Notes under the pieces: generated by a model
Database searches by the model: none
What the model was told of the DNA's origin: nothing
Seen by the model: the letters and a program-made list of their open reading frames with translations, nothing else
Shown here: positions 6,658 through 56,313 of the stretch, one piece after another
How positions within the stretch are numbered: position 1 is the first letter of the stretch
Layout of the letters: each line of letters opens with the position of its first letter
Made by a program: the position numbers and the translations under genes
NCBI GenBank assembly: GCA_910586305.1
Contig: CAJUGS010000014.1
Span: 360-64,359, forward strand
Reading direction: 5' to 3'
Length of the DNA stretch: 64,000 nucleotides
DNA from: an uncultured Duncaniella sp.
GTDB taxonomy: Bacteria > Bacteroidota > Bacteroidia > Bacteroidales > Muribaculaceae

Positions 6658-6770
6658 TTCATGATACATCGCGACGCATTCCAGAACACATAATGACATA
6701 AGACTATCCGGAGGCTGTAACTATATTTGTTTCAGCTAATCATTATCAGCCTCTAACACAAATCAGTCTT

Positions 6771-8270
6771 ATGTTATCAAAAAAACAACTTGCCGGCATT
6801 TTTGCTGTCACCTTACTTATAAACGGTACTTCCGCGGCAGAAGCCATGACAGACCATCAGTTTGAAAAAACGCCGAAACTCGGCACCGGAAACTGCAATC
6901 CACTGCTCGACTTTCTGCATGTAGCCGATCCGACAGCCGTGGTGCATGACGGGCGTGTGTATGTCTACGGAACAAACGACCAGCAGGAACTTGACTCCGT
7001 GGGGCGCGATGGCAAAAACAGCTACGCACATATCCATTCGCTCGCTATGATGTCGTCAGATGATATGGTAAACTGGACCTACCACGGAATCATCGATGTG
7101 GAACAGGCTGCCCCCTGGACCGGCGAAAAAGGCGTATCATGGGCTCCGTCCATAATCTCACGCACCGAAAGTGACGGCCTGACTCATTTCTATATGTACT
7201 ACTCCCACGGTGGAGGCGGTGTCGGTGTCATCACCGCCACTTCTCCTGTAGGCCCCTGGACCGACCCGCTCGGTCATGACCTTATAGATGTGAACACCCC
7301 CGGACTTACAGACTGCCCGGCCCCCTTCGATCCGGGTGCGGTCATTGACGAAAACGGCGTAGGCTGGCTCTCATTCGGAGGAGGACGTAGCTCAAAAGCC
7401 ACTACATTTCTGCCCGGAAGCGCCCGCATAGTCCGCCTCGGAAGCGACCTTCTGAGTCTCGACAGCGAAATCAGCGAAATTCCCGCTCCATACTTCTTTG
7501 AAGCCAGTGAGCTGAACTATATAAACGGCACATGGGTCTACTCCTACAGCACCGATTGGGTCGACCGCACCGAATGGAATGATCCTGAAGTCTCGCACCC
7601 CTCAATCTGTTCGATCGGTTATATGACATCGACCGACCCGCTCAACCGCGACAGTTGGAAATTCCGCGGCGACATTCTCAAAAATCCTCATGACTATGGG
7701 ATGGAATACACCAACAATCACACCCACTTCCTGCGTTTCAACAACGAATATTACATCTTCTATCACACCAATCACCTTGCTGACTTCAGAGGCATCACTA
7801 CCGGCTACCGGAATATCTGCGTAGACCGACTTGATGTTGACGAAAACAGCGTCGCAATACCGACCGGACAGATGACCCAGACCGGAGTCGCACAGATCAA
7901 ACCGCTCGATCCGTTCGCGTGGCAGCAGGCCGAGACCGTAGCCGCCACCTCAGGCATAAAATTCGAACACACTGACGTGGCAGGCAACATGGTTGCCTGC
8001 GGATTAGGCTCAGGTCAGCAGTCTGAAGTCCGTGGCGCAGATTTCGGGAAAGGAGCTTCTCGATTCGAAGCCAAAGTCAGAGGCAAAGGTGTTATCGACA
8101 TCCACATCGGAAGTTCCAAAGGCAAGCGCGTAGCAAGTCTCGTCATTGATCACCCCCAATGGCAGACCGTCAGCGTCCGGCTCGGCAAAAAGCTCAAAGG
8201 GAGCCAGGACCTCTGCTTCGTCTACCGGGACGGCGATTTCAAATTCGACGAATGGCGTTTCATCCGCTGA
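6771..8270 (+). CDS. GH43 glycoside hydrolase (arabinofuranosidase/xylosidase type) with C-terminal CBM6-like module
   Basis: Signal peptide. GH43 catalytic-type motifs VADPTAVVHDG, FDPGAVIDENG, FFEASEL. The C-terminal ~130 aa are beta-sandwich-like and end in FKFDEWRF. Confidence 0.85.
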   Translation: MLSKKQLAGIFAVTLLINGTSAAEAMTDHQFEKTPKLGTGNCNPLLDFLHVADPTAVVHDGRVYVYGTNDQQELDSVGRDGKNSYAHIHSLAMMSSDDMVNWTYHGIIDVEQAAPWTGEKGVSWAPSIISRTESDGLTHFYMYYSHGGGGVGVITATSPVGPWTDPLGHDLIDVNTPGLTDCPAPFDPGAVIDENGVGWLSFGGGRSSKATTFLPGSARIVRLGSDLLSLDSEISEIPAPYFFEASELNYINGTWVYSYSTDWVDRTEWNDPEVSHPSICSIGYMTSTDPLNRDSWKFRGDILKNPHDYGMEYTNNHTHFLRFNNEYYIFYHTNHLADFRGITTGYRNICVDRLDVDENSVAIPTGQMTQTGVAQIKPLDPFAWQQAETVAATSGIKFEHTDVAGNMVACGLGSGQQSEVRGADFGKGASRFEAKVRGKGVIDIHIGSSKGKRVASLVIDHPQWQTVSVRLGKKLKGSQDLCFVYRDGDFKFDEWRFIR

Positions 8271-40493: not shown

Positions 40494-41933
40494 TTATTCC
40501 GGATGTTCCTCGGCGTAAGCGGTGTCGGGATGTATGCCGGTACCGTCAAAGCAGTGGGTACAGATGCGACACTTGGGCAGGCCGATTGACTCGACGAGAT
40601 CCTCGATTTTGCTGAACTTCAGTGTCGATAGTCCGAGTCTGTGCGCCACTTCGGCCACCATACGTTCGTAGCGGGGTGAGCCTGTGGTGGCATACTCGTC
40701 GAGATGTGCGTTTTCGTCACCCTCGAAATCCTTGATGATCTGGCGTGTGATGAGTTCCATATCGCTCTTTGACGATGTGAAACCGATGAAGGGGCATCCG
40801 TAGACAAGTGGCGGACATGAGATGCGGGCGTGTACGGTGTTGGCGCCGCATTCAAAGAAGGTGCGCACATTGTCGCGGAGCTGTGTGCCTCTCACGATTG
40901 AGTCATCGCAGAAAACCACGCTCTTGCCGTTGAGCACAGCCTTGTTGGGAATGAGCTTCATCTTAGCCACAAGATCGCGACGCGACTGGTTGCCGGGTGT
41001 GAAGCTGCGTGGCCATGTCGGAGTGTACTTAAGCACAGCGCGACGGTAGGGGATACCGCTTCCTTCGGCATAGCCGAGTGCATGGCCTACGCCGGAGTCG
41101 GGAATACCGCACACGCAGTCTGCGTCAGTCGGGTCTTCTTTGCCCATTGCGCGTCCGCCTGCCTCACGCACGTCCTCTACGTTGATACCAAGATAATCGC
41201 TGGCGGGGAAACCATAGTATACCCACAGGAAGGAGCAGAATTGCTCTCTATTGCCGGGAGTGCGGAGCACCTCCATCGAGTCGGCACGGAGTCTCACCAC
41301 TTCGCCGGGGCCGAGGTCCCTCACCACCTTGTAGTCGAGATTGGGGAATGCGCAGGTCTCGCTTGTTGCTGCATATGCTCCATCCTTGTGGCCGATTACG
41401 ATTGGTGTACGGCCCATATAGTCGCGGGCGGCTATGATGCCGTCCTCGGTGAGTATGAGCATTGAGCATGAGCCCTTGACCTTGCGATAGACAAGATCGA
41501 TACCCTCTTCGAAAGTCTTTCCCATGTTAATGAGAAGTGCCACAACCTCGGTCTGGTTGATATTGTTGGCCGAGAGTTCGCTCAGGTGCATACGTTCGGC
41601 GAGAAGCTCGGCGGCGATTTCGCGAAGATTGTTAATCTTGGCTACTGTCACCACTGCGTAACGTCCTAAGTGTGAGTTGACGATGATGGGTTGGGGGTCG
41701 GTGTCGCTGATCACTCCGAGACCCTGGTTGCCGTGGAAAGAGTCGAGTTCGTCCTCGAATTTCGAACGGAAATAGTCACGCTCAAGTGAGTGAATCTTGC
41801 GATTGAAGCCCTTCTCAGGGTCGAAGGTCACAAGTCCGGCACGTTTTGTGCCGAGATGGGAATTGTAGTCTGTGCCATAGAACAGATCTGTTATGCACGG
41901 ACGGGCCGAGACGGTGCCAAAAAAACCTCCCAT
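40494..41933 (-). CDS. Amidophosphoribosyltransferase-like protein (PurF-like) without the N-terminal catalytic Cys
   Basis: PRPP-binding loop VVFCDDSIVRGTQL and a class-II GATase-like N-domain, but the N-terminus is MGGFFGT rather than MCG. Start set at ATG 41933, because the 37 upstream codons of the ORF contain a TACCTTTG promoter box. Confidence 0.75.
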   Translation of the reverse strand: MGGFFGTVSARPCITDLFYGTDYNSHLGTKRAGLVTFDPEKGFNRKIHSLERDYFRSKFEDELDSFHGNQGLGVISDTDPQPIIVNSHLGRYAVVTVAKINNLREIAAELLAERMHLSELSANNINQTEVVALLINMGKTFEEGIDLVYRKVKGSCSMLILTEDGIIAARDYMGRTPIVIGHKDGAYAATSETCAFPNLDYKVVRDLGPGEVVRLRADSMEVLRTPGNREQFCSFLWVYYGFPASDYLGINVEDVREAGGRAMGKEDPTDADCVCGIPDSGVGHALGYAEGSGIPYRRAVLKYTPTWPRSFTPGNQSRRDLVAKMKLIPNKAVLNGKSVVFCDDSIVRGTQLRDNVRTFFECGANTVHARISCPPLVYGCPFIGFTSSKSDMELITRQIIKDFEGDENAHLDEYATTGSPRYERMVAEVAHRLGLSTLKFSKIEDLVESIGLPKCRICTHCFDGTGIHPDTAYAEEHPE

Positions 41934-41979
41934 AATTCGTTTGTAAGATGTGTATGACTGGTTTTGAAATTTGAAAGTG

Positions 41980-41987
41980 CAAAGGTA
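41980..41987 (-). promoter_or_regulatory. -7 box (TACCTTTG) for the PurF-like gene
   Basis: The reverse complement of caaaggta matches TAnnTTTG, ~47 nt upstream of ATG 41933. It separates this gene transcriptionally from the operon upstream. Confidence 0.4.
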
Positions 41988-42055
41988 GTAAAAATCCCTA
42001 AACTGAGAAAGAACGTGTTCTCTCTGTTGCTTATTTTTTTTCAAAACGTTGTGGC

Positions 42056-45000
42056 TCAGTTCACCACTGAATCGAGGTCGAGCTTACGCAGAGTGAGTAT
42101 AGTGAGGATGTCGGGATTCCGGCTTTCCGTCGTGACAGGGATATACGGGAAGAATGGAGTGAGAAACCGCCTCCAGCGGTCGGTGTCATCAGCTGTCACC
42201 GAGGCAAGGACAAAGCGGCATTCAGCAGAGTTGTCGTTGGCTATGTGGCGTGTGGCCACGTTGCTCATGCGGTTGAGACTCATGAACGTTTCTTGTGGCG
42301 TGGGTTGGGCAAGGTATGGATAGTGGATTCGCCCGGTGAGGTAGTTGACAATGTTGAAATCCTTGAAAATCTCGCATAGACTGTCGCGCACGGTTGACTC
42401 GATGATTTCGCGCGGATCATCGGCCTCTTCCGAGGAGGCGTAAGAGGCAAATAGCTTGGTGAGATCTATACGGCTCACTATGCACGGTGCCGAGTTGTCA
42501 AAGAAAGCCTCGAGCGCAGCCGGATTGGTAAGGCTCACGAACATTGCCTCATTGAATGCATCAATTGACTCCGACCTGGCTGTGGCCTCGTCATACCACT
42601 CGGAAAGCATGGAGTTGTAGTCGGCCAGACGGCGGTAGAGGGCGTCGAGCTTCATATTGGCTTCGTGGAGTGAATCGATAACCATACCGGCTGTGTGGAA
42701 ACGCAGCTGTGTTTCAAGCAGCATCCTGCGTTGCAAGGATATTTGAGCTGCGATTTCCTCCATCTCACTCTGCAAATCATGCCGGTGGTTGCGGCAGGCT
42801 GTGCGGTAGTACAGCCACACCATCACCGTTATAAAAATGATAGCTCCGGCCACAATGCTCGTCCATAGGGTGTCGAGTGTGAATACCTCCAGGGAGACGA
42901 GAAGTATGAATATGCCGAGGGCTATTACCGATGCTCCGCTCCAGACCAGGGCGCGGCTGAGATACGTCTTGCGGAATAGCTTGAGCCGTTCCGGGAAGGC
43001 GTTCATTAGTTTGCGGTGGCGTGCCTCGAGATTGGATATGCTTTCCTGCTGTCTTTCTTCGGACAGACATCTCAGTTCGTCGCGCACATTGGGAAGACAT
43101 AGCCGCTCGATGAGATGGCGATAGTAGCGGTAGTTGGTCTCGTATAGCTTAGTCAGGCTTTCGAGTCTCACCCGCGCTTCGTCAAGAGTGTTGGATATGG
43201 CCGCGATTTTTATCTGGGTTTCTGTTCCGGCAAACGGTGCTGTCAGTTGAGGCACACGTCCTCCTTTCTGGCCTTCGGGTGCTTGCTCGGTAGTCTGTGT
43301 GATTATACAGGCAAAGTTGTTGAATTCCGGGTCGTCCACGTAGGCCGATGAGATGTAGCAGTAACCCTTGTCGCCAAAGTCTTTGCCCCAGGAGTTGCGC
43401 ACGATATAGCACTTGTCGATTTCCGAATAGCCTGTTATTACCATTGCGTGGTATCCTTCCTCGCCTTCGGCTATCTCGCTCTCGGTGGGTCGGCCCACAT
43501 GGCCGTCTGGAGTGTGGGGGAAGGATGGATATACCTTGAGAGAGAACCCCACCGGATAGCCTTCTGACAGGGCGGAGGTGAGCAGCCTGTGGTTGGTCTC
43601 GATGCATTCCATCCTGCTTCCCTCGGTCATGAGTGGTATTTGGCAGGCTTTGAGCACTCTGTGGCCTTCGGCTTCCGAGGTAGCGGCGGCCGAGGGTGGC
43701 ACGGATATATTTTCCGGAGAATAGGGACACAGTTCCTCGGTGCATATGCCGAGTCGTCCCATCACGGAGAGCTGCTCGTAGAAGTTGCTCCCTCCTTCGG
43801 GGCGCCCGGACATAACGTTGCTGTGATAGAAGAGAAATCTCTCGCTCAGTGATGCTTCCGGGCTATTGCTGCTTTCGGAGTGGAGGCGGTTGATGATGTA
43901 TTCATACATCGCTGTCGTTGCAAACGATGAGCAGGATCCGACACTACCCTGGCTTCTGACGGCCGAGAAGTAGCGTCGCAGGTCAACGGACGGGAGTATC
44001 TTGAGATCCGGGGCGGGTGTGTATTTAGCATCGAGTGGTTGCTCGCGTATTTCGAAATTGCCGGGGCGGTGGTGTATCTCCTCGCGACGGCGTGAGGCCT
44101 CCTCGTTGTTAAGATTTTTGCGCAACATTTCAAGTTCGGATTCCTTGCCCCTTATATAAGAGGTAAGGTCAAGGATGTCCGACTTGAGGCGTTTTATCTC
44201 TGGAAGCGGGTTGAATGCATGGTTGTTTGCTTCGTCCTCCACATACTCCATGCGCGCCTGGTCATAGTGATAGCGTTTCAGCTCGGGGAAGTTCTGTGGT
44301 GTGGGCAGAAGACCGGTGTACAGTGCGTTGCGATTGAACGAATCGATAAATATCGATGCCGGTTCGGTGTAAGCATCGTCGAAATACAGTGGTTCCTGTT
44401 TGTACAGCATTCCTTTCAGTCGCGGATTGTCGCGGCCAAGAAGAAGTGCCAGCGTTGCTTCACGTTCGGGCAGTGAGAGGGCCGGGTTGTTGACAAACTC
44501 TGTGATTCGGTCCGTGAGTGCCCGGGTGCTGCGTTGTAGAGCCGGGTAAATCTGTCCGGCTATGTCGCTTTCGGACAGTTTGCGCTCATATAGCGGGCTC
44601 ACTTCGCTGTTGTAGAAGTCGTTGTAGAATCCCTCGATTCCGTTCAGCGCGTTCATAGCCCGTTCGGCTGCGCCCTGAGTGTCGACAGTGGTCTGTGTGA
44701 TTCCGTTTTTCTCAAGGGTCGAGGCCACAGTGCGGTTGAGGAGGTAGTCAGTGATTTCCCATCGGTCAAACCGCAGGCGGGCAAGTCCGATGCTGATGAG
44801 ATTGGAAGATCCGGCCGGGAAGAATCCCGGTGTAATCACTGTCGCATAGTTCTCTGAAAGAGATGCTATTATTGATGCGATGAACTCCGAGAGGCGACGG
44901 AGTGTGAATCCTATCGCCGCACCGGTAGCCACATAGTCGTCAACGAGTGCCAGTGAGCAGTGGAATCTCGACGAGGCTGTGAGGGCGTCGATGGAGCGAA

Positions 45001-45397
45001 TATTCTCCTTCTGTATCTCTCGGCAGTCGGCCGGAAGTTCGTGTCCGAGCAGATGGGCGAGGTTGTATTGCAGCCCTATTATGTCGAGAGAAATAGAGTT
45101 TCCTGTCTGCTCCACAGCCTCGATGATATTCCTGGCCGTTTCAGCAGCCTCCGGCACGAACAACGGTATGATGGCAATGGTGTGGAGAGTTGTGTCGGCC
45201 GAGTCTATCGTGATATGCTCGCGATACATACCCGCCAGGCTCGATGTGAGCCGGTCTGTCGTCAGTCCATCGCAGTCGAGCGGTGTGTAGAGACTTGGTA
45301 ATTGTGGCGTTTTAGCCACGGCAAGACTCACCTCGGTGGAGAGTTGCCCGGTTATGGGCGATGGCCATAGGCCGATGATGGGTGTGGCGGGATGCAT
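42056..45397 (-). CDS. 1113-aa multidomain protein: N-terminal Rossmann-like (possibly degenerate tubulin-like) domain, coiled coil, papain-like C1 cysteine peptidase, coiled coil, TM hairpin, C-terminal domain
   Basis: C1 catalytic set with papain spacing: Q483-G-S-V-G-S-C489 (the Cys codon is 43931-43933), YH650AMVITGY, IVRN668SW670G. Two TM helices at aa ~816-836 and 845-864 (nt 42806-42952). No signal peptide. 13 nt downstream of the tubulin-like gene. Confidence 0.8.
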   Translation of the reverse strand: MHPATPIIGLWPSPITGQLSTEVSLAVAKTPQLPSLYTPLDCDGLTTDRLTSSLAGMYREHITIDSADTTLHTIAIIPLFVPEAAETARNIIEAVEQTGNSISLDIIGLQYNLAHLLGHELPADCREIQKENIRSIDALTASSRFHCSLALVDDYVATGAAIGFTLRRLSEFIASIIASLSENYATVITPGFFPAGSSNLISIGLARLRFDRWEITDYLLNRTVASTLEKNGITQTTVDTQGAAERAMNALNGIEGFYNDFYNSEVSPLYERKLSESDIAGQIYPALQRSTRALTDRITEFVNNPALSLPEREATLALLLGRDNPRLKGMLYKQEPLYFDDAYTEPASIFIDSFNRNALYTGLLPTPQNFPELKRYHYDQARMEYVEDEANNHAFNPLPEIKRLKSDILDLTSYIRGKESELEMLRKNLNNEEASRRREEIHHRPGNFEIREQPLDAKYTPAPDLKILPSVDLRRYFSAVRSQGSVGSCSSFATTAMYEYIINRLHSESSNSPEASLSERFLFYHSNVMSGRPEGGSNFYEQLSVMGRLGICTEELCPYSPENISVPPSAAATSEAEGHRVLKACQIPLMTEGSRMECIETNHRLLTSALSEGYPVGFSLKVYPSFPHTPDGHVGRPTESEIAEGEEGYHAMVITGYSEIDKCYIVRNSWGKDFGDKGYCYISSAYVDDPEFNNFACIITQTTEQAPEGQKGGRVPQLTAPFAGTETQIKIAAISNTLDEARVRLESLTKLYETNYRYYRHLIERLCLPNVRDELRCLSEERQQESISNLEARHRKLMNAFPERLKLFRKTYLSRALVWSGASVIALGIFILLVSLEVFTLDTLWTSIVAGAIIFITVMVWLYYRTACRNHRHDLQSEMEEIAAQISLQRRMLLETQLRFHTAGMVIDSLHEANMKLDALYRRLADYNSMLSEWYDEATARSESIDAFNEAMFVSLTNPAALEAFFDNSAPCIVSRIDLTKLFASYASSEEADDPREIIESTVRDSLCEIFKDFNIVNYLTGRIHYPYLAQPTPQETFMSLNRMSNVATRHIANDNSAECRFVLASVTADDTDRWRRFLTPFFPYIPVTTESRNPDILTILTLRKLDLDSVVN

Positions 45398-45410: not shown

Positions 45411-48194
45411 TCAGAATTCGTCGGTGATGTAGTTCATTTCTTCATTGAGAATGTCGGCGGTCGCCTTGAGACGCGGATCCTCAAGCTGCTCGATGGTGTA
45501 TTGGCAGCCTGAGAAGTCGGTGAGGTATGTCCCGTCGTCCACTGAGGCCTTGGCCCGGCGCAGACGGTCGAGCATTGTGGTGTCTTCGCCAGGCATACCC
45601 ACTTTGTCGCGCTCTTTTTCTATTTCGGGAGCGATAATGTCAAGATTGTCAATTAATGTAGAGAGCGCTTCCTCTCGGCTTGCACCGAGTTGGACGCGGT
45701 AGCCGTTGAGAGGTTTGCCGCCCATGGCCCGGCTGCGTATTATATAGGCCTCCTTGCTCGGATCGCGCACGATGATGCCAGCAACGATGGCAAATGTCCA
45801 CAGGGCAATGACCTTGGAGCGTGAGATGTCGTCGTGTGGCTCAAGGTCGAAGCGTTCACGTTTCATACGTCTGGCCATCTCGGCATCGAAGTGGCTGGTA
45901 AACTCCTTGTCTTCTTCAAAACGGTTGTATTCCAGAATATAGTTGTCAAGGGAGGTCAGCGTGAAAGCGGGCACAACGCCTATCTGGCGGTAGATGATGA
46001 TGCGGTCGCTTATACCTGTGGTGGAGTAGTCAACCGAGCTGGAACCGGGAAGTATGTTGCGCAGGTGGTCGCGACGCGAGATGCGCGATTTTGCCTTGTC
46101 GGCCACACCGACATAGAAGTTGTCGACAGGACGGTCTTTGATGTCCGAGTCGTAGCCACGGTAGCTGTAGGTGAAGAGAGGCATGGCCTTGCTGACCGCG
46201 CGGTGGCACAGACGGTCGAAACTGTCATCGTCCATTGCGTCGATAACCTGGTCGATGGTGGTGTTCTTGAGTTCTTTTACCTTGGGTAGTGTGGAGGCGA
46301 AGTCGTTGAACAAACGCGATGTCTCGGCAGCCGACATGGTCGAAATTGTCTGTATGCCACCGTCGGTAGACATGAACTTGATGAAGTCGTTGAACACAAT
46401 GTCCTGGGCCGGACAGGTGATTTTCTCGGCTTCCGGACCGGTGAGGTCTACCTGGAAGAGGTTGGAGTTGCCGATGTTGAGAAGCTTGCGCTCTATGGTG
46501 CGTCCACACTCCTCGTCGACGGCATGGAGGTTGGAGAGGATGATGTTGACGCGGTCAAACGACTGACCTATGCGGGTGCGTAGCCAGTAGTAGAAGTCAC
46601 GGGCCATCTGTCGGCGTGTGATTTCGCGCCGGGTTCTGGCCACTGTCATGGTTCGGTCACACACCTCGGCTGAAAGCTCTCTGCGCTTGCCTCCCGAGAA
46701 TATGCCTCGTGTCTCCGACAGTTCTTTGCAGGTGCTTTCGAGCGAGCTTTCCTGGCGTGGAAGCAGTTCTTCCAGTCCCTTCATCTCAGTGTGCATCTCT
46801 CCGTCACACAGCTCTATCTGTGTCAGTATGGCCTTGAGTATATGTTCGCACAGGTATATGCCGCATTCGCGGTTGGACTGCTCCTTCATGAAGTCGGAAA
46901 GGGCTATGTCCACACGGCTTTTGAGTGCGTTGAGTTTTTCAATGAGCGACTCGGGACTTTCTGTGGCAATATTGGCGAGGAAGTGGTCCACCTCCACCTT
47001 GGGATTTTCCGGACTTTCGATTTCCGAGAGTGACCTTGGGGAGGCTGCTGGCATGAAATAGTCGATTACGTCGTCTTTTTCGAGGTTCTCGCGTATGCGT
47101 GTGTTGGTGAACCAGTTGTTGGCAAGCACCGATGGATCGTCACATCCGCCGTTGCGCATACGGTTGATAATCTGGCGTATGGCTTTCAGTGTGTATATTT
47201 CGCTGAGTGTATGGCTGCTGAAGAGAATCTCCGATACGCCGAATCCGGCTGCCCATGCTTTTTTGTTGCGGATATCCATGGTGCCGTCGTTAATCTGCTT
47301 GGCCACGTTGTCGCTCACAGACGCAGTGGCTACGCTCAGTTCGCCGGTGGAGGTTACGAGCGCCAGAGATATCATCTCGCACAACTGGTCGACGTTGGAG
47401 AACATATCGTTGTTCTCGTTGCGGTTGTCAATGAAATAGAAGGCTGTGAACGGACGTTCGCGCACCATCTCGGTCGAACGTAGCCACTTCAGTTCCACCG
47501 GCAGAGAGCCTGGTCCCAGATGCATCAGGAAGTCGAGGTCGCGTATTGCACCCATGGCATTGGGGCGTACACGTGCCATTCCTGCACCGTGCATCATGGC
47601 TCTGAACACGTCGGCCATCACGGCATAGCCCGAGAGTTTGGCTTCCGGAAGTATTCGCTTGATGAGGTAGGCCATGTTGAGGAAAGTGCCACACCCTGTG
47701 CCTCCGCCGAGCGAGAACACAAGGTGTACTTCCACTTCGTTGGAGAGAAGTCCGTAGCGTGGATTGTCGATGATGGCTGCCGAGTTGATCTGGCGCAGTT
47801 TTGATGATAGTGAGTTCACCACGTCATCCTCGCGTATGGTGACGGCAAAGCGGCCGTTCGTTCGTATCGCCCCTGCTCCGATATTCAGCGATGTCAGCGC
47901 GGCTGTATTGCAGGCCGGAATCCAGCCGAAGTTGCCGGGGGTGCGCAGATAGATGGCCGATGGCGAATTTACGGATATGGGAAGTTGCTCCGACGACGAG
48001 AGGGTGATGGGTGTTCCGTCTTTGGCGGGAAGTGATTTGTTGTACACGCCTCCGTCGGTGTCAATACCGAGAAATCCCAGCATTGGAGGTATTTCTCCAT
48101 AGGTGTCATAGAGTATCTTCTTGGTGTGGAGGAGTGCGTTCATGCCTGTGCCGCCAAGGCCGATGAAGAGAGTGCGTCTGAGTTTGGTAGCCAT
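45411..48194 (-). CDS. Divergent tubulin/FtsZ-superfamily GTPase (Tubulin_2-like), 927 aa
   Basis: T1 GLGGTGMNA (aa 12-20). T3 GAGAIRTNGR (aa 106-115), with the same spacing as FtsZ GAGANPEVGR. T4/tubulin signature GGGTGCG (aa 163-169, nt 47688-47708). A long, uncharacterised C-terminal ~600 aa follows. Confidence 0.8.
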   Translation of the reverse strand: MATKLRRTLFIGLGGTGMNALLHTKKILYDTYGEIPPMLGFLGIDTDGGVYNKSLPAKDGTPITLSSSEQLPISVNSPSAIYLRTPGNFGWIPACNTAALTSLNIGAGAIRTNGRFAVTIREDDVVNSLSSKLRQINSAAIIDNPRYGLLSNEVEVHLVFSLGGGTGCGTFLNMAYLIKRILPEAKLSGYAVMADVFRAMMHGAGMARVRPNAMGAIRDLDFLMHLGPGSLPVELKWLRSTEMVRERPFTAFYFIDNRNENNDMFSNVDQLCEMISLALVTSTGELSVATASVSDNVAKQINDGTMDIRNKKAWAAGFGVSEILFSSHTLSEIYTLKAIRQIINRMRNGGCDDPSVLANNWFTNTRIRENLEKDDVIDYFMPAASPRSLSEIESPENPKVEVDHFLANIATESPESLIEKLNALKSRVDIALSDFMKEQSNRECGIYLCEHILKAILTQIELCDGEMHTEMKGLEELLPRQESSLESTCKELSETRGIFSGGKRRELSAEVCDRTMTVARTRREITRRQMARDFYYWLRTRIGQSFDRVNIILSNLHAVDEECGRTIERKLLNIGNSNLFQVDLTGPEAEKITCPAQDIVFNDFIKFMSTDGGIQTISTMSAAETSRLFNDFASTLPKVKELKNTTIDQVIDAMDDDSFDRLCHRAVSKAMPLFTYSYRGYDSDIKDRPVDNFYVGVADKAKSRISRRDHLRNILPGSSSVDYSTTGISDRIIIYRQIGVVPAFTLTSLDNYILEYNRFEEDKEFTSHFDAEMARRMKRERFDLEPHDDISRSKVIALWTFAIVAGIIVRDPSKEAYIIRSRAMGGKPLNGYRVQLGASREEALSTLIDNLDIIAPEIEKERDKVGMPGEDTTMLDRLRRAKASVDDGTYLTDFSGCQYTIEQLEDPRLKATADILNEEMNYITDEF

Positions 48195-48233: not shown

Positions 48234-50048
48234 TTAGACTGAAAGATAGGTCTTGTCTCCGGTGTTGATATTTGTGAGAGTGTATTCATTTCCCTTTTCG
48301 AGGCGAGCCGTGGGTGCGATGTCCCAGATTGAATTACGTGTCATTCTGGCTGCATTGCGGGCAGGGAGTAGTTCGATGGCAGGTGTGAAGTGGTCGGCGC
48401 GGATATATATTATCCTGCCTGTGAATATGCGACTGAAAATGTTCTGGCTCTCTCTGCGGGAAGTCAGCACTGCTTTTCTGGCCCCGCGAAGCCGCTTTGT
48501 GGCAAAGTAGCTTCCGGGTCCTTGCATCTGTATGGTGAGTGACTTGAAAGTGGGGTATACCATTCTTTTAATAAACAGAAACCACAGTATCAGTGCGGAC
48601 AGCAACACTATGCCAATCCATACCAGCAGGGTCTTCAGCGGGTTCCAGTCGACACTGTATGTGGTGCGGAAGGGTAGTTCGCTCACAGCCCCTATGCTCA
48701 CACCATTCAGCATTTCAATATCGCGACTGTCGCGGTTGACGAGACTGAAATACCTCTTGCCGGTTTCTGCATCGGTGTCAAATGTGATGCCCAGCCGGGC
48801 TTCCTTTCCGGGCTCGACGATGAATGTCTCTCCCGGTCCAACAGGCTGTCCGTTGAAGCTGACTTTGAAGTCGGAGGAGTCGCCGTTGGCCGGCACGACC
48901 GCGAGGACAGCCATTGGGTGGTCGTTGTCTGTGTTGGTGAATTTCGCAGCTAGGTCTATCACTATTTCTTCCTGGGGCGCGGCATCGCTCCACAGAAAAG
49001 CCGGATACCATTCGGCACCAGGTTTCACAATAACCTCGTCGGTGTCGCCACCGAGCAGTGACAGTTTGCGCAGGGCGCGGTTGGCCATGATTACTGTAAC
49101 CTCGGGATTGACTATCGTCATGTGCGGGTCCTTGGAGTTGACTGTGAATGTGAACTCATACATCCCGTCTTCATCGGTCTCCTCAGCGAGGCGGTTGTTA
49201 AGCTCTTCCACCGAGATGTCTCCACGTGGAGAGAATCTCACATTAATATTATAGTCGGAGCTTTTGCCTCCCTCCACGCTGACGTTGAAAAAACGGTCGG
49301 CACATTTTGCCTCTACAGGATAGGGTTCCTTCTCGCTGAATCCAATACTATATGTCTTGTTGAGTTCGAGTGTGTTTGCATATATCACGTTGCCAATGTC
49401 GGATATGGTCGGTATCTCTCCATCCGTACATTTGATACTGTAGGCGTCCGAACATCCGGCCAATGCTTCGTCAAGAGCAGGATCGGAGGCCACCCCATCG
49501 AGCATCACGTAGAAAAACTGTGTGTTTTTATGGGCTGCACACCACTCTCTGATGAGACGGCACACGGCTGGCGTGCCGTGTACCTCGTCCTTGCCATCGG
49601 TGAGAAGGTATACGCGGTTGTCCATGGCCGGATTGACATTTCTCATGCCGGCCTTGAAGGCCTCATAGATATTTGTCTTGGAGTGGGGTGTAGAGATGAT
49701 TTTGTCGAGTCGCTCGAGAATTCCGGCCCTTTTCTTTTCATATTCGCTTCCGTCGAAAACGATTTCATTGAATGGATTGTCCTGGAACGGGACTATGACA
49801 AATCGGCTCTCCGGGTCATGGCTCTGGCGTGTCACAGTTCTGTCAAGAGCATTCTTGGCCGGTTCCCACATATTAATTTCCGGACTCTTCATGGAAGCCG
49901 TGCAGTCAAATATATATATGTAGTTGCGCTGCCTCTGGGCCGAAACGGTGACGCTGCTGAAAACGAGCAGAAAGAGTGTCGCTAAAATCACAGAGGTGTA
50001 CTGTCGGGCGCATGATGTGCGCCATACGGGGAAATGTGATATCATCAT
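48234..50048 (-). CDS. Exported von Willebrand factor A (MIDAS) protein with a C-terminal TM anchor and ~110-aa cytoplasmic tail
   Basis: Signal/anchor VILATLFLLVFSSVTVSAQ. MIDAS D63-C-T-A-S67 (nt 49893-49907), T140, LLTD166G. Beta-rich middle region. TM LLVWIGIVLLSALILWFLFI (nt 48570-48635) followed by KR-rich residues. Residue numbers count from the ORF-track start at 50093. The start is probably ATG 50048 (MMISHF...), because the upstream codons are AT-rich and contain a TATATTTG box. Confidence 0.8.
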   Translation of the reverse strand: MMISHFPVWRTSCARQYTSVILATLFLLVFSSVTVSAQRQRNYIYIFDCTASMKSPEINMWEPAKNALDRTVTRQSHDPESRFVIVPFQDNPFNEIVFDGSEYEKKRAGILERLDKIISTPHSKTNIYEAFKAGMRNVNPAMDNRVYLLTDGKDEVHGTPAVCRLIREWCAAHKNTQFFYVMLDGVASDPALDEALAGCSDAYSIKCTDGEIPTISDIGNVIYANTLELNKTYSIGFSEKEPYPVEAKCADRFFNVSVEGGKSSDYNINVRFSPRGDISVEELNNRLAEETDEDGMYEFTFTVNSKDPHMTIVNPEVTVIMANRALRKLSLLGGDTDEVIVKPGAEWYPAFLWSDAAPQEEIVIDLAAKFTNTDNDHPMAVLAVVPANGDSSDFKVSFNGQPVGPGETFIVEPGKEARLGITFDTDAETGKRYFSLVNRDSRDIEMLNGVSIGAVSELPFRTTYSVDWNPLKTLLVWIGIVLLSALILWFLFIKRMVYPTFKSLTIQMQGPGSYFATKRLRGARKAVLTSRRESQNIFSRIFTGRIIYIRADHFTPAIELLPARNAARMTRNSIWDIAPTARLEKGNEYTLTNINTGDKTYLSV

Positions 50049-50062
50049 TAAGGATTTATTCG

Positions 50063-50094
50063 CAAATATAAACATTATAATTGGATTGCACAAG
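50063..50094 (-). promoter_or_regulatory. Candidate promoter of the vWA/tubulin-like/protease operon
   Basis: The reverse complement of caaatata (50063-50070) is TATATTTG, which matches TAnnTTTG. The -33 element is only partial (cTTG, 50091-50094). It would give a very short 5' UTR before ATG 50048. Confidence 0.35.
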
Positions 50095-50135: not shown

Positions 50136-50208
50136 TGGCTAATATCAATCATCAATCAACAATCCGCAAGCAAAAGCATAGCTTAAATATATTAATACCA
50201 ACACACAA

Positions 50209-51225
50209 ATGGGACTTTTTGAAAAACTTACCGCCAAGGCCAAGGCCTCTCGCCAGCGTATCGTGCTTCCCGAAGGCACAGAACCACGCACACTCACAGC
50301 CGCCGACCGCCTCATCGAAGAGGGTGTTGCCGATATAATACTCATCGGTGATCCCAAGGAGATTCACACTATGGCCGACTCTCTCAAGCTCAAGAATATT
50401 GAGAAGGCTACTATCGTCAATCCTGCAGATGAGAAGGTGATCGACAAGTATGCTCCTATCTTCTTCGAGCTCCGCAAGAAGAAAGGCATCTCTATGGATG
50501 AGGCCCGTATGACCGCTGCCAACCCCCTCTATCTCGGCTGCCTTATGATCAAGGCAGGTGATGCCGACGGCCAGGTGGCAGGAGCGCAGAACACCACAGG
50601 CAACGTGCTTCGCGCAGCCTTCCAGGTAATCAAGACCAAACCCGGCATCAATGTGGTGTCCGGAGCTTTTGTTATGGTCCTTCCCGAAGACTCCCCCTAT
50701 GGAACAAACGGTCTGCTCATCTTTGCCGACTGTGCCGTTATTCCCAATCCCACTGCTCCCGAACTTGCGCAGATTGCCGTGTCGGCAGCCCAGACAGCCC
50801 GCGACATTGCCGGAATGGAGCCCCGCGTTGCCATCCTCAGCTTCTCTACCAAGGGTAGCGCTAAGCACGAGATGGTCGACAAGGTGATCGAAGCCACAAA
50901 GATAGCCCAGAAGATGGCTCCCGAGCTCTCTCTCGACGGTGAGCTCCAGGCCGATGCCGCTCTCGTGCCCAGCGTAGCCAACTCCAAGGCTCCCAACAGT
51001 CCTCTTTCGGGCCGTGCCAACGTCCTCGTATTCCCCTCGCTCGAAGTGGGCAACATCGCCTATAAGCTTGTGCAGCGTCTCGGTGGCGTAGAGGCTGTGG
51101 GTCCCGTGCTCCAGGGTCTTGCCGCTCCTGTCAACGACCTTTCGCGCGGATGTTTCCCCGAAGACATCTACAAGACTGTCATCATTACTTGCAACCAGGC
51201 CATTGGTCTTAAGGAGAACGCTTGA
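50209..51225 (+). CDS. pta: Phosphate acetyltransferase
   Basis: 338 aa. RIVLPEG.EPRTL, GDADG.V.GA, and a PTA_PTB-family C-terminus. Confidence 0.95.
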   Translation: MGLFEKLTAKAKASRQRIVLPEGTEPRTLTAADRLIEEGVADIILIGDPKEIHTMADSLKLKNIEKATIVNPADEKVIDKYAPIFFELRKKKGISMDEARMTAANPLYLGCLMIKAGDADGQVAGAQNTTGNVLRAAFQVIKTKPGINVVSGAFVMVLPEDSPYGTNGLLIFADCAVIPNPTAPELAQIAVSAAQTARDIAGMEPRVAILSFSTKGSAKHEMVDKVIEATKIAQKMAPELSLDGELQADAALVPSVANSKAPNSPLSGRANVLVFPSLEVGNIAYKLVQRLGGVEAVGPVLQGLAAPVNDLSRGCFPEDIYKTVIITCNQAIGLKENA

Positions 51226-53707: not shown

Positions 53708-55039
53708 TCAACTGTATCTCACCTGCTTTCTGAGCAGTAGCAGGGTTATCATGGTGGGGAAAGCCATGAGGGCATAGAACAGATCGCAGAAACCTACGGC
53801 CATTCCCAGCGGCATTACGGCGAATATGACGAGAGTGGCTATGAATACCCAGATGTAGTGGCGGCCGTGTTTCTCGCCAAACAGGTAGGAGGCGCAGCGT
53901 GTGCCGTAGAAACTGTAACTGAACATCGACGAGAGGGCAAAGCACAGCACTATGACCATGAGCAGGTATTCGCCCCACGGAATGGCTTTTCCGAATGCCC
54001 CCATGGCTATCGACAGTCCTCTGATACTGCTGTCGGATGCTTCGAAATCTCCACACAGTAATAGTGAGAGAGCTGTTAGCGTACATACGAATCCCGAGTC
54101 GATACCTGGTCCAAGCATGGCTATGAGTGCCTCGCGTCTCGGGTTGGTGTTGGAGGAGGCTCCGTGCATGATGGTTGCAGTTCCCACTCCTGCATCGTTG
54201 ACAAGGGCCGCTCTTCGCGCCCCGATGACGGCAATGCCGACGAGCGCGCCCCATCCTGCTCTCAGGTTGAATGCTTCGGCAAATATTGAACGGAATACAC
54301 CGGGAACTTCCGTTATATGTGTGGCAATGATATATAGCACAAGCAGGAAGTAGAGCCCCACCATGGCCGGAACGAGCCATGAGGCCACAGAGGCTATCCG
54401 TCTGATGCCGCCGATGGTGACGAGCGTCACCACAAGAGCGATGGTTATTCCTATGAGAAGACGGAAAAGAGTGTCGGCTCCCAGACCGGTGCTGACCGAG
54501 AAATCTTCGAGCCATCCTGGACGCGGAAGAGTGGTGGTGAGAGCCTCTGTGAGCTGGTTGGCATTCATGATGCAGAGGGTTCCGAACATTCCCGCCACAG
54601 CAAATGTTATGGCGAGCCACCGCCACTGCTGTCCGAGGCCTTTCTCAATAATATACATTGTTCCGCCGGCAGGGGTCCCGTCTGGCAGAGTGGCCTTGTA
54701 GCGCGTAGTGAGGTATCCTTCGTGGTATTTTGTTGCCATGCCGACTATGGCACTCACCCACATCCAGAATATTGCACCCGGACCACCCATGACGAGAGCT
54801 ATAGCCACGCCGGCTATATTGCCCATACCCACGGTGGCGGCCACAACAGATGCAAGGGCCTGGACTGACGAAATCTGTGAGCCGGAATCGCGACTCTGTT
54901 TCTCACGCAGTACTCTGAGCGATGAGGGGAGGGAGCGGAGTGACACGAGGCCCGAGCGGAGGAGCAGAAAGAGTCCTCCCCCTATGAGAAGAATGAAGAG
55001 CGGCACTCCGCATATGAGGTCGGCTATGGAATTAATCAT
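53708..55039 (-). CDS. Alanine/glycine:cation symporter (AGCS family)
   Basis: ISSVQALASVVAATVGMGNIAGVAIAL..GGPGAIFWMW is the AGCS signature. Start set at ATG 55039 (MINSIADL...). The 99 upstream codons of the ORF overlap the TPM gene and are Arg-rich out-of-frame sequence. Confidence 0.9.
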   Translation of the reverse strand: MINSIADLICGVPLFILLIGGGLFLLLRSGLVSLRSLPSSLRVLREKQSRDSGSQISSVQALASVVAATVGMGNIAGVAIALVMGGPGAIFWMWVSAIVGMATKYHEGYLTTRYKATLPDGTPAGGTMYIIEKGLGQQWRWLAITFAVAGMFGTLCIMNANQLTEALTTTLPRPGWLEDFSVSTGLGADTLFRLLIGITIALVVTLVTIGGIRRIASVASWLVPAMVGLYFLLVLYIIATHITEVPGVFRSIFAEAFNLRAGWGALVGIAVIGARRAALVNDAGVGTATIMHGASSNTNPRREALIAMLGPGIDSGFVCTLTALSLLLCGDFEASDSSIRGLSIAMGAFGKAIPWGEYLLMVIVLCFALSSMFSYSFYGTRCASYLFGEKHGRHYIWVFIATLVIFAVMPLGMAVGFCDLFYALMAFPTMITLLLLRKQVRYS

Positions 55040-55047
55040 GGTTGTCT

Positions 55048-56313
55048 TTACCAGTTTCCGCTGGCTCCTCCTCCGCCTGTCATACCTCCTCCAAACGAGC
55101 CTCCTCCAAAGCTTCCGCCACCTCCGCCACGTCCGGCCGAACCGAGGATGGCTCCGAGTGCTGCCGCTGCCGCGGCATCGCTCTCCTTGCGGGGAATCTT
55201 GAAATAGCGGTCGTCGTGGTGTCCGCAGTTGCGACACACAAGGCGGTCCATACCCTGTCCCTCGTATTGGGCGGTGGCCTGGCGCAGGATGCGTCGTTCG
55301 GTCACGCCGAGAGTGCGGGCGTGGCATTTGGGACATTCCTTGTAGGAACTGCTGTCGTTGACAAACGGGAATATATCAGTCTGGTGACATTTGGGACAGT
55401 GCCACACGTCGTAGTCCACCGAATTGAGTCTTTCCTCCATATCCTGTGCCGGTGTGAGGTAGTCATTGTCGTGCTCCTCGTCTATCAGTTTCATACCTGA
55501 GCCACAGTGGGGACATTTGTGTTTTCTGTGCCGTATGTTGCGCATCTTCCACCACAGTATAAGAAAAGCCGGAAGTCCCATACCGAGTGTGAGACAGGCT
55601 ATGATGGCAAGGGCGAGCCTGTATTTTCTGAGACTTCTCCAACGGTCTACGTCATCGAGTTTGCGCGTTGAAAACAATATGATTATAGAGAAGACAAAGA
55701 CAAGTGCGGCAACGAGTACTGCGAGTCCAAGAACGGCTTGGAACAGCGTGTCGGAATCGAGTGTATTGATCTGTATGGCATCGTTTGGTCTGTCGGATTT
55801 CAATTCGTCACCGAGGCTCGGGTCACGGACTATTTCTCCAAGTCGAGACACACCTGCAGTGATGCCTCCGTCATAGTCTCCTTCGCGGAATTTAGGAAGC
55901 ATGAAGTCTCGGATTATGCGTCCGGCCACAATGTCGGGGACTGCTCCCTCCACTCCATAGCCTGTGCGAATTATGGCTGCACGGTCGTCTGTCGACACAA
56001 GCACAAGCAGGCCGTTGTCTTTGTCGGCCTTGCCTATTTTCCATTTTTCGAAGAGTTTTGTGGCGAATTCATCGGGCGTATAGTCGGGGTCGACCTCGTC
56101 AACTGCCACCACGACAAGTTCCACTGAAGTGTCGGTCCAAAGAGACTTGATGTAGTTGTCGAGGGTGCTGACTGTAGCCGGAGACAACACGCCCGATGGA
56201 TTTGAGACATATCTGTTGCGGTCGGCGACGTGGACATTGGGCACTTCGTCGAGTGTTATAGCCGGTGCTATGAGTGGCAGCAGCAGGGAGAGCAGAAATA
56301 ATAGCTTTTTCAT
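55048..56313 (-). CDS. TPM-domain (TLP18.3/YgcG-like) protein with a TM helix, two zinc ribbons and a Gly-rich tail
   Basis: Signal peptide. TPM domain (VELVVVAVDEV...GLLVLVSTDDRAAIIRTGYGVEG). TM segment. Four CxxC pairs (CPHC, CPKC, CPKC, CRNC). The tail is GGGGGSFGGGSFGGGMTGGGGASGNW. Confidence 0.8.
   Translation of the reverse strand: MKKLLFLLSLLLPLIAPAITLDEVPNVHVADRNRYVSNPSGVLSPATVSTLDNYIKSLWTDTSVELVVVAVDEVDPDYTPDEFATKLFEKWKIGKADKDNGLLVLVSTDDRAAIIRTGYGVEGAVPDIVAGRIIRDFMLPKFREGDYDGGITAGVSRLGEIVRDPSLGDELKSDRPNDAIQINTLDSDTLFQAVLGLAVLVAALVFVFSIIILFSTRKLDDVDRWRSLRKYRLALAIIACLTLGMGLPAFLILWWKMRNIRHRKHKCPHCGSGMKLIDEEHDNDYLTPAQDMEERLNSVDYDVWHCPKCHQTDIFPFVNDSSSYKECPKCHARTLGVTERRILRQATAQYEGQGMDRLVCRNCGHHDDRYFKIPRKESDAAAAAALGAILGSAGRGGGGGSFGGGSFGGGMTGGGGASGNW

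Follow-up and report, generated by a model that had tools for sequence, protein, structure and literature searches.

What does a bacterium do with a tubulin-like protein whose gene stands apart from the genes of cell division? The question is raised by gene B, the central member of three closely packed minus-strand genes (A, B and C) in a contig of an uncultured Duncaniella sp. from the family Muribaculaceae (GenBank assembly GCA_910586305.1, contig CAJUGS010000014.1, positions 360 to 64359), whose 64000 nucleotides we call the window. An original prediction, made from the sequence by eye, held that the 927-amino acid (aa) protein B carries a tubulin/FtsZ-type GTP-binding domain and is not the cell-division FtsZ. 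We find that it almost certainly belongs to FtsZl1 / Tubulin_2, a branch of the tubulin-FtsZ superfamily, and that it is encoded in a conserved cassette with two membrane proteins, and we tentatively favour a role as a GTP-gated, membrane-tethered assembly or switch. The features of protein B on which the argument rests are the following.

45411..48194, minus strand: gene B, FtsZl1 / Tubulin_2-family protein, 927 aa, ATG start
47145..48194, minus strand: aa 1-350, predicted tubulin/FtsZ-like GTP-binding domain (conservation in 140 representatives and hhalign)
Protein B, conserved loops: T1 G12-G17; T2 D45-T46-D47; T3 G106-R115; T4 G163-G169
Protein B, candidate positions from the order of secondary structure elements in the model: T5/H5 N212; T6 D256-N257; H7 D295-N296
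47259..47285, minus strand: loop G304-K312, GTMDIRNKK (consensus GxxDxxNK), placed by the model behind the H7-like helix (286-303)
46470..46862, minus strand: coiled-coil stalk, two very long predicted helices, aa 445-493 and 501-575 (model)
45414..46157, minus strand: predicted C-terminal alpha/beta domain, aa about 680-927 (model)

Protein B belongs to the FtsZl1 family

The three nucleotide-binding loops lie exactly where they had been reported: GLGGTGMNA at aa 12-20 (nt 48135-48161), GAGAIRTNGR at aa 106-115 (nt 47850-47879), and the T4 loop GGGTGCG at aa 163-169 (nt 47688-47708); the 64-kb window contains no second tubulin signature. The Cys at position 6 of this signature, remarked on as a departure from the consensus, is genuine and also usual in the family, where 140 representatives have Ser in 62 cases, Cys in 44 and Ala in 27. 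The original prediction was right that the distance between T1 and T4 exceeds the ~85 aa of FtsZ; its figure of ~135 aa was too low, and we measure about 142-151 aa. Protein B has no canonical T7 synergy loop (NxDxx[DE]), which the eye had also failed to find, and ~575 extra residues do follow the GTPase core. As had been noted, the gene is outside any division and cell wall (dcw) cluster: ftsA, ftsQ and mur genes are absent from its surroundings, which consist of genes for a von Willebrand factor A (vWA) protein, a papain-transmembrane (TM) protein and a PurF-like protein, a GH28 gene, trp genes and pta-ackA.

Protein B matches the Pfam family PF13809 (Tubulin_2), one of the comparisons that had been proposed, well above its cut-off (146.6 bits, cut-off 27; E = 1.4e-42), and the alignment of aa 9-343 takes in positions 1-355 of the 356 in the profile. 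The match to PF00091 is limited to the T4 region and falls under the cut-off (E = 0.15, 12.7 bits, cut-off 33), and the same Pfam scan gave no match to the FtsZ_C and Tubulin_C domains. In a database clustered at 90% identity, 978 of 8000 scored candidates match protein B at E <= 1e-5; PF13809 is carried by 120/120 homologues among the matches listed, some of which NCBI labels as 'tubulin-like domain-containing protein'. At 50% identity, 2302 representatives match at E <= 1e-3. The ~920-aa architecture is retained among these down to about 24% identity, and across 140 family representatives the loop residues are nearly invariant over the same range.

PF13809 has been equated (PMC9871819) with FtsZl1, the FtsZ-like 1 family described by Makarova and Koonin in 2010 (PMC2875224). 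According to that description, FtsZl1 proteins have family-specific inserts between T1 and T4; H5 is the last alignable element, and T6-H7 and T7 cannot be aligned with confidence; the C-terminal domain is unlike that of FtsZ and tubulin, an extended coiled coil and a mostly helical C-terminal region being present instead. Conventional FtsZ is encoded elsewhere in the same genomes, and an operon partner has a vWA domain. The supplement of the same paper tabulates a gene trio from Bacteroides caccae ATCC 43185, comprising BACCAC_02056 (hypothetical, 535 aa), BACCAC_02057 (FtsZl1, 913 aa) and BACCAC_02058 (COG4870 cysteine protease, 1152 aa). A review from 2011 regarded the function of FtsZl1-type proteins as unknown and considered that filaments are possibly not formed (PMC3160578); filament formation is raised as an open question in both papers. 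Protein B agrees with the published description point by point, and nothing essential differs.

The oddities that drew attention to protein B are therefore real, and the novelty that they seemed to imply is much lower, because every one of them characterises an already named family. The FtsZl1 family, PF13809 and the gene trio were all known. What is added here is a confident three-dimensional model, candidate T6 and H7 residues (N257, D295/N296), a conserved GxxDxxNK loop and the occurrence of the vWA partner in fused and split forms; the reading of the protease protein as a degenerate FtsZl1 paralogue may be a further addition.

Predicted fold of protein B

An AlphaFold2 (AF2) model of protein B, built on an alignment of 58 sequences, has a mean predicted local distance difference test score (pLDDT) of 89.8 and a predicted template modelling score of 0.73, with no segment having a pLDDT <50. 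By Foldseek the model has 543 matches in the PDB at E <= 1e-3. The best 50 are exclusively CetZ, FtsZ, alpha-, beta- or gamma-tubulin, and BtubA, with a probability of 1.00 for each one listed; the top match is CetZ2 (4b45_A, E = 8.5e-7, target-normalised TM-score 0.50), and S. aureus FtsZ (4dxd) and tubulin (4u3j) are among the other leading matches. The original prediction had staked itself beforehand on this comparison, and at the level of the model the tubulin/FtsZ fold is confirmed. Its central claim, that a protein other than the division FtsZ contains a GTP-binding domain of the tubulin/FtsZ fold, is supported jointly by the model, the Foldseek matches and PF13809. The comparison of folds was needed because searches of PDB sequences, with protein B alone or with a 58-sequence profile, returned no FtsZ or tubulin and gave coiled-coil noise instead. 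Among the viral models of BFVD, phage FtsZ, tubulin and PhuZ were matched weakly, and a dynamin-like match (probability 0.38) was not significant.

We obtained a sequence register from hhalign, using four FtsZ sequences as reference since alignments of protein B to one or two FtsZ sequences were too weak. Three of the four match PDB entries–those of M. jannaschii and M. tuberculosis agree at every residue, and that of B. subtilis matches from end to end at 642 bits–and the fourth is that of E. coli FtsZ. Protein B aa 9-227 align with residues 15-165 of B. subtilis FtsZ (P = 0.0013), keeping T1, T2 (NTD/DTD), T3, T4 and S5 in step and placing the T1-T4 inserts of protein B at aa 46-105 and 137-152. 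The alignment ends at H5 (aa 227), so T7 and H7 are not placeable by sequence.

Downstream of the GTPase domain, the model predicts a helical region (aa 351-440), the coiled-coil stalk, a helical bundle (about aa 585-670) and the C-terminal alpha/beta domain. In the stalk region the 58-sequence profile matched only coiled-coil proteins in the PDB, and the stalk corresponds to the 'extended coiled-coil' of FtsZl1. The C-terminal domain has no match in Pfam. Its hydrophobic stretch at 790-810 is modelled as a buried helix (792-804) in the alpha/beta domain, with no obvious TM segment, and aa 654-740 align by hhalign with the C-terminal domain of protein C.

The GTP pocket and the T7 question

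The residues that would contact the nucleotide are well conserved among the 140 representatives. Near-invariant positions are G12, G14, G15, T16 and G17 in T1; G106, A107, G108, R111, G114 and R115 in T3; and S161, G164, G165, T166, G167 and G169 in T4. The T2-like motif of protein B is 'DTD', whose first residue, D45, is invariant (140/140). At the start of an H5-like helix N212 is kept in 139/140, and D221 is also near-invariant. Directly past an S6-like strand comes N257 (129/140), in a motif 'IDN' that can be compared with FtsZ 'IPND', and the helix 286-303 contains 'SDNVAKQ', which resembles the 'ADNVLRQ' of B. subtilis FtsZ H7 (D295 is kept in 109/140 and N296 in 119/140). We infer from the order of elements in the model and from these motif resemblances that N212/D221, N257 and D295/N296 occupy the H5, T6 and H7 positions. 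Each candidate GTP-binding residue is kept in >=109/140 representatives, and most in 129-140. Because the nucleotide loops are conserved in this way, the sequence makes it very likely that protein B binds GTP.

The sole T7-like candidate by position is the loop 304-312, which is non-canonical. K311 is conserved in 131/140 representatives, and position 307 is most often Asp (69) or Asn (30). A low-confidence alternative hhalign alignment pairs this loop with T7, and in it the counterparts of the FtsZ catalytic Asp are not conserved as acidic residues. Past the loop the model has one long strand (313-324) and then helices only, with no S7-S10 sheet after the H7-like helix. Protein B is unlikely to rely on the canonical activation in trans by T7 or to make longitudinal contacts of the FtsZ type.

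A conserved three-gene cassette

Gene B is flanked by the same two genes in almost every genome where we could look. The three genes of the cassette, which are the only ones between pta and the PurF-like gene in the window, are listed here in order of transcription.

48234..50048, minus strand: gene A, about 604 aa; signal peptide, vWA domain, beta-rich region, one TM helix, tail
45411..48194, minus strand: gene B, as above
42056..45397, minus strand: gene C, 1113 aa; degenerate tubulin-like N-domain, coiled coil, papain (C1) domain, TM hairpin, C-terminal domain

We collected related loci with a 15-sequence alignment and surveyed 84 of them, from 80 species-level genomes and metagenome contigs. 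A-B-C occur in the same order in 80/84, and in the four incomplete loci a gene is at or near a contig edge or its match is too weak. The gap between B and C has a median of <10 nt, and 4-nt overlaps occur several times. Muribaculaceae, Prevotellaceae, Paludibacteraceae, Rikenellaceae and Fibrobacter, from gut and rumen, are among the hosts; identity to the protein B of the window ranges among the loci from 59% to 31% and roughly tracks taxonomy. At least 523 species-level genomes have a relative. The chromosomal site of the cassette differs in every genome examined and is usually amid housekeeping genes; in the window the flanking genes are unrelated and on the other strand, namely pta-ackA on the upstream side and, downstream, GH28 and the trp operon.

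The G+C content of the cassette (0.535) is close to that of the window (0.516). In comparisons with homologues, the best conserved parts are the GTPase domain, with a mean identity of 42% to the window protein, and the papain domain, with 48%, and we found no hypervariable region in the cassette proteins. Profiles from PADLOC-DB v2 gave no match at E <= 0.01 to A, B, C or two flanking open reading frames (ORFs), and PHROGs gave no match to protein B. None of the three proteins contains a Walker A or NKxD motif.

Protein C: a predicted protease and probable pseudo-tubulin

Protein C has no signal peptide. Its predicted parts are as follows.

44093..45397, minus strand: aa 1-435, alpha/beta tubulin/FtsZ-like domain without glycine-rich loops, then helices
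43298..44020, minus strand: aa about 460-700, papain-like cysteine peptidase, predicted cytoplasmic
42803..42955, minus strand: aa about 815-865, TM hairpin of two hydrophobic helices (hydropathy)

The peptidase domain matches Peptidase_C1 (PF00112) with E = 2.9e-16. As the residues Q483, C489, H650, N668 and W670 are kept in 46/46 Bacteroidales homologues, it looks active. By the positive-inside rule both ends of the TM hairpin are cytoplasmic, and the AF2 model has helices at 769-835 and 844-941. This model, built from an 11-sequence alignment, has an overall pLDDT of 76.6, with mostly 80-93 in the N-domain. The first half of the papain domain (aa 478-584, about 43646-43966 on the minus strand) has a pLDDT <50 despite the clear Pfam match, probably because the alignment is shallow; this segment may alternatively be flexible or pro-peptide-like.

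A relationship to protein B is suggested both by structure and by profiles. Foldseek places xylellain first (E = 6.4e-9), together with cathepsins L and K; of the next 40 PDB matches, beyond the proteases, 26 are to TubZ, FtsZ or gamma-tubulin, with E 0.02-0.13, a probability of 0.91-1.00 and 240-310 columns aligned. When profiles of 49 protein C sequences and 140 protein B sequences were compared by hhalign, four collinear matches were found:

C 1-27 with B 1-28: score 20.9, P 0.3
C 144-231 with B 247-346: score 35.0, P 0.01
C 731-770 with B 535-574: score 20.4, P 0.33
C 1029-1106 with B 654-740: score 53.3, P 1e-4

The best score of C against a reversed B profile was 24.0, and in a separate hhalign run the C-terminal match between C and B had a probability of 60.6%. 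The glycine-rich loops are missing from protein C at the places of T1 and T4. We considered its 'DDY...GAxIGF' stretch as a T4 loop and rejected it, since hhalign sets it at S6/T6. Taken together, we think that protein C is probably a pseudo-tubulin paralogue of FtsZl1 with an inserted protease and TM hairpin. The paralogy of C and B may be a new point.

A profile search for further protein C homologues gave 8 matches. In three Fibrobacter homologues of about 867 aa (L062:10778-13384, L066:5148-7754 and L077:10745-13345) the papain domain is exactly absent and the N- and C-terminal domains are retained. In Fibrobacter a further, lineage-specific gene begins <=2 nt from the stop codon of C–its product in L062 has 709 aa and a Fib_succ_major domain, and in L077 it has 992 aa and no Pfam match.

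Protein A: a predicted periplasmic vWA protein

A profile of 29 protein A homologues matches vWA domains in the PDB, namely those of PTMP1 (E = 1.1e-11), ITIH4 and complement C2. The vWA domain is predicted to be periplasmic and has an intact metal ion-dependent adhesion site (MIDAS), with D48, S52, T125 and D151 invariant in the 29 homologues. The TM helix, assigned from hydropathy, is followed by a conserved cytoplasmic tail of ~95 aa. Many rumen and gut Bacteroidales relatives have gene A split into a ~330-aa vWA gene and a ~305-aa TM gene that overlap slightly (for example, 6077-7081 and 7068-7976 in L030, or 5941-6972 and 6962-7903 in L043), so the vWA domain is a separable subunit.

The start codon of gene A was picked by alignment of homologues and is not certain. 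We noticed a match, TATATTTG, to the Bacteroidetes -7 consensus TAnnTTTG at 50063-50070 on the minus strand, 15 nt 5' of the chosen ATG. The site is inside a longer ORF that starts with TTG and is a consensus match only, so that both the start of gene A and its promoter are uncertain.

Neighbouring genes

Immediately downstream of the cassette in the window is a gene at 40494-42044 on the minus strand, which encodes a PurF-like amidophosphoribosyltransferase paralogue with a GATase_7 domain (TIGR01134, 189 bits, well under the 350-bit equivalog cut-off). It has a TAnnTTTG box, TACCTTTG, upstream and a hairpin with a T-run terminator downstream, and its likely ATG is at about 41933. We rejected it as part of the cassette, given that it is absent in 83/84 other loci and has a promoter box and start codon of its own; the exception is locus L068, where a copy with 66% identity follows the cassette at a distance of 2.3 kb. 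On the other side, a 238-aa ORF at 50152-50868 (minus strand) was also rejected. It has no family match, overlaps pta on the other strand (50209-51225, plus strand; PTA_PTB, E = 2.5e-120) and is almost certainly spurious.

Two loci have unusual neighbours, each in a single genome: a Cas3-like HD/DEAD helicase adjoins the cassette in L085 (5115-7295, minus strand), and a DDE transposase fragment with a caspase-like C14 peptidase adjoins it in L087 (16559-19505). Such neighbours are too sporadic to serve as evidence for a defence island. Farther away in the window, a 421-aa protein (55048-56313, minus strand) carries a TPM domain at its N-terminus (E = 4.5e-37), together with weak matches to YjdM and Lar that are zinc-ribbon-like. 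Its ORF partly overlaps that of a 542-aa Na/Ala symporter (53708-55336), which probably means that one of these ORFs has been called with too early a start codon.

What might the cassette do?

The reading that we favour, tentatively, is that protein B acts as a GTP-gated, membrane-tethered assembly or switch and not as a division filament. It would bind GTP in the canonical pocket. Without T7 and the C-domain, it would probably form no FtsZ-type treadmilling protofilaments, and it would more likely be a module for GTP-gated dimerisation or oligomerisation. Its partner would be the degenerate paralogue C, through the homologous N- and/or C-terminal domains, somewhat like an active/inactive tubulin pair. 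The TM hairpin of C, with the TM helix and cytoplasmic tail of A, would anchor the assembly to the inner membrane, and events at the periplasmic MIDAS-vWA domain could in this way be coupled to the cytoplasmic, active-looking papain-type protease. A more detailed version, in which B and C form an active/pseudo 'tubulin pair' at the inner membrane and vWA-triggered, GTP-dependent pairing or oligomerisation turns on the protease, is rather unlikely to be right in full.

Several points weigh against our favoured reading. The statistics for paralogy of C and B are moderate (Foldseek E 0.02-0.13, hhalign P 0.01 and 1e-4), and the placements of H7 and T7 on the model of protein B are tentative. That protein B binds and hydrolyses GTP, its oligomeric state and its interaction with C are all things that we infer, and protein B may instead form filaments of a novel geometry. 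The Fibrobacter versions of protein C show that the protease is not in the conserved core. We found no experimental or biochemical work on any FtsZl1 member in the literature that could be searched.

Other readings start from the same facts. Makarova and Koonin (PMC2875224) proposed a membrane-remodelling or vesicle machine, in which FtsZl1 would polymerise non-canonically on the inner membrane and reshape the envelope together with the vWA and membrane proteins; we regard this as somewhat unlikely, and place its output in Bacteroidales as outer-membrane vesicles, for example, at the same level. Both partners of protein B are membrane-anchored, one of them periplasmic, as such a machine would have it, and a GTPase head on a long helical stalk loosely recalls dynamin, although the dynamin-like BFVD match was not significant. 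The single architecture across >500 species, with identity roughly following taxonomy, the lack of a hypervariable region and a G+C content like that of the surrounding window also fit. Yet the cassette has no known membrane-bending module, it is not obvious what its cytoplasmic cysteine protease, which is strongly conserved, would do in remodelling, and experimental support was not found in the searchable literature. If the protease is instead given the leading part, the cassette becomes an abortive-infection-like conflict or anti-phage system, whose vWA domain senses an invader, whose tubulin-like NTPase multimerises as a threshold and whose papain protease is the effector. This we think unlikely. 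There is precedent in the operons of Kaur et al. 2020, with one or two tubulin-domain/coiled-coil genes and extracellular-vWA TM proteins (PMC7159879); the cassette site differs between genomes, single cases lie beside a Cas3-like helicase (L085) or a transposase and C14 peptidase (L087), and the protease domain, which resembles an effector, can be removed as a module. Against it, A, B and C have no PADLOC match and B none in PHROGs, the DO-GTPase (TRAFAC P-loop) and GAP1 genes that define those systems are absent, the three proteins have no P-loop motif, the effector is constant in 46/46 Bacteroidales homologues and not swapped, and the flanks are mostly housekeeping genes, with no hypervariable sensor region. 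Between a conserved envelope-associated function and a conflict or suicide response we lean slightly towards the former, for which the one fixed architecture over hundreds of species, the lack of a hypervariable region, host-like G+C content, housekeeping flanks and the lack of PADLOC matches all speak; the latter is favoured by the change of chromosomal site between genomes, by the modular nature of the protease and by the Kaur et al. precedent.

Two simpler readings concern protein B alone, and both seem to us very improbable. It could be a canonical, GTP-hydrolysing cytomotive filament like FtsZ, TubZ, PhuZ or CetZ, working in division, DNA segregation or cell shape, as the tubulin/FtsZ fold, the best structural match to CetZ2 and the intact T1-T4 loops would allow; but PF00091 stays below threshold (E = 0.15), FtsZ_C, Tubulin_C and a canonical T7 are missing, ~575 extra residues lie behind the GTPase domain, a TubR-like partner is absent, and gene B is neither in a dcw cluster nor on a plasmid or phage, its neighbours being pta-ackA, GH28 and trp. 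Alternatively, the tubulin-like domain could be a relic that does not bind GTP, in a nucleotide-independent scaffold. The loss of T7 and the C-domain and the large T1-T4 inserts would suit a relic, but the phosphate-binding glycine loops and candidate base contacts are near-invariant over 140 representatives, which is hard to explain otherwise than by nucleotide binding, and what actual loss of the nucleotide loops looks like is illustrated by the degenerate paralogue C.

Significance and comparison with known systems

As the result of a genome scan, gene B is the rediscovery of an annotated family. Its interest lies in the family being functionally blank and in the apparent pairing of an active and a pseudo-tubulin with a membrane-anchored protease. 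Few branches of the tubulin/FtsZ superfamily are as divergent as FtsZl1, and our search of the accessible literature found no experimental study since 2010. Gut and rumen genomes contain the Bacteroidales version in abundance, its layout of three genes is simple and fixed, and the culturable B. caccae ATCC 43185 has a copy, so this version offers a practical entry point to a tubulin-fold GTPase without T7 or an activation domain. If the more detailed version with an active/pseudo 'tubulin pair' is true, a tubulin-superfamily protein would serve not as a cytoskeletal filament but as a transmembrane signalling or cell-fate switch that is widespread in gut Bacteroidales.

The canonical members FtsZ, CetZ, TubZ and tubulin share with protein B the N-domain fold and the T1-T4 loops. 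Protein B differs from them in lacking both a canonical T7 and the C-terminal domain that activates the GTPase, in its ~575-aa tail and in its genomic context. Alpha/beta-tubulin, BtubA/B and B/C are alike in being adjacent paralogues of which one is stripped of catalytic or nucleotide motifs, which we offer as an analogy only: in protein C the nucleotide loops are wholly lost and a protease and TM hairpin are present, unlike in the partners of tubulin pairs, and pairing of B with C is presumed.

The closest parallel in gene content is with the conflict systems described by Kaur, Burroughs, Iyer and Aravind in 2020 (PMC7159879), where Firmicute operons with two tubulin-domain/coiled-coil genes and extracellular-vWA TM proteins lie within DO-GTPase/GAP1-N2 systems. 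Both these systems and the cassette have a tubulin domain fused to a coiled-coil/alpha-helical C-terminus and a TM protein with an extracellular vWA domain, and the two tubulin-domain genes of the Firmicute operons are comparable to B and the pseudo-tubulin C. The cassette has no DO-GTPase, GAP1 or FNIII-repeat genes, GAP1 being excluded by gene content alone. It also has a fixed papain-like domain where the Kaur et al. systems have variable components, and it is found in Bacteroidales and Fibrobacter, whereas they belong to Firmicutes or Actinobacteria.

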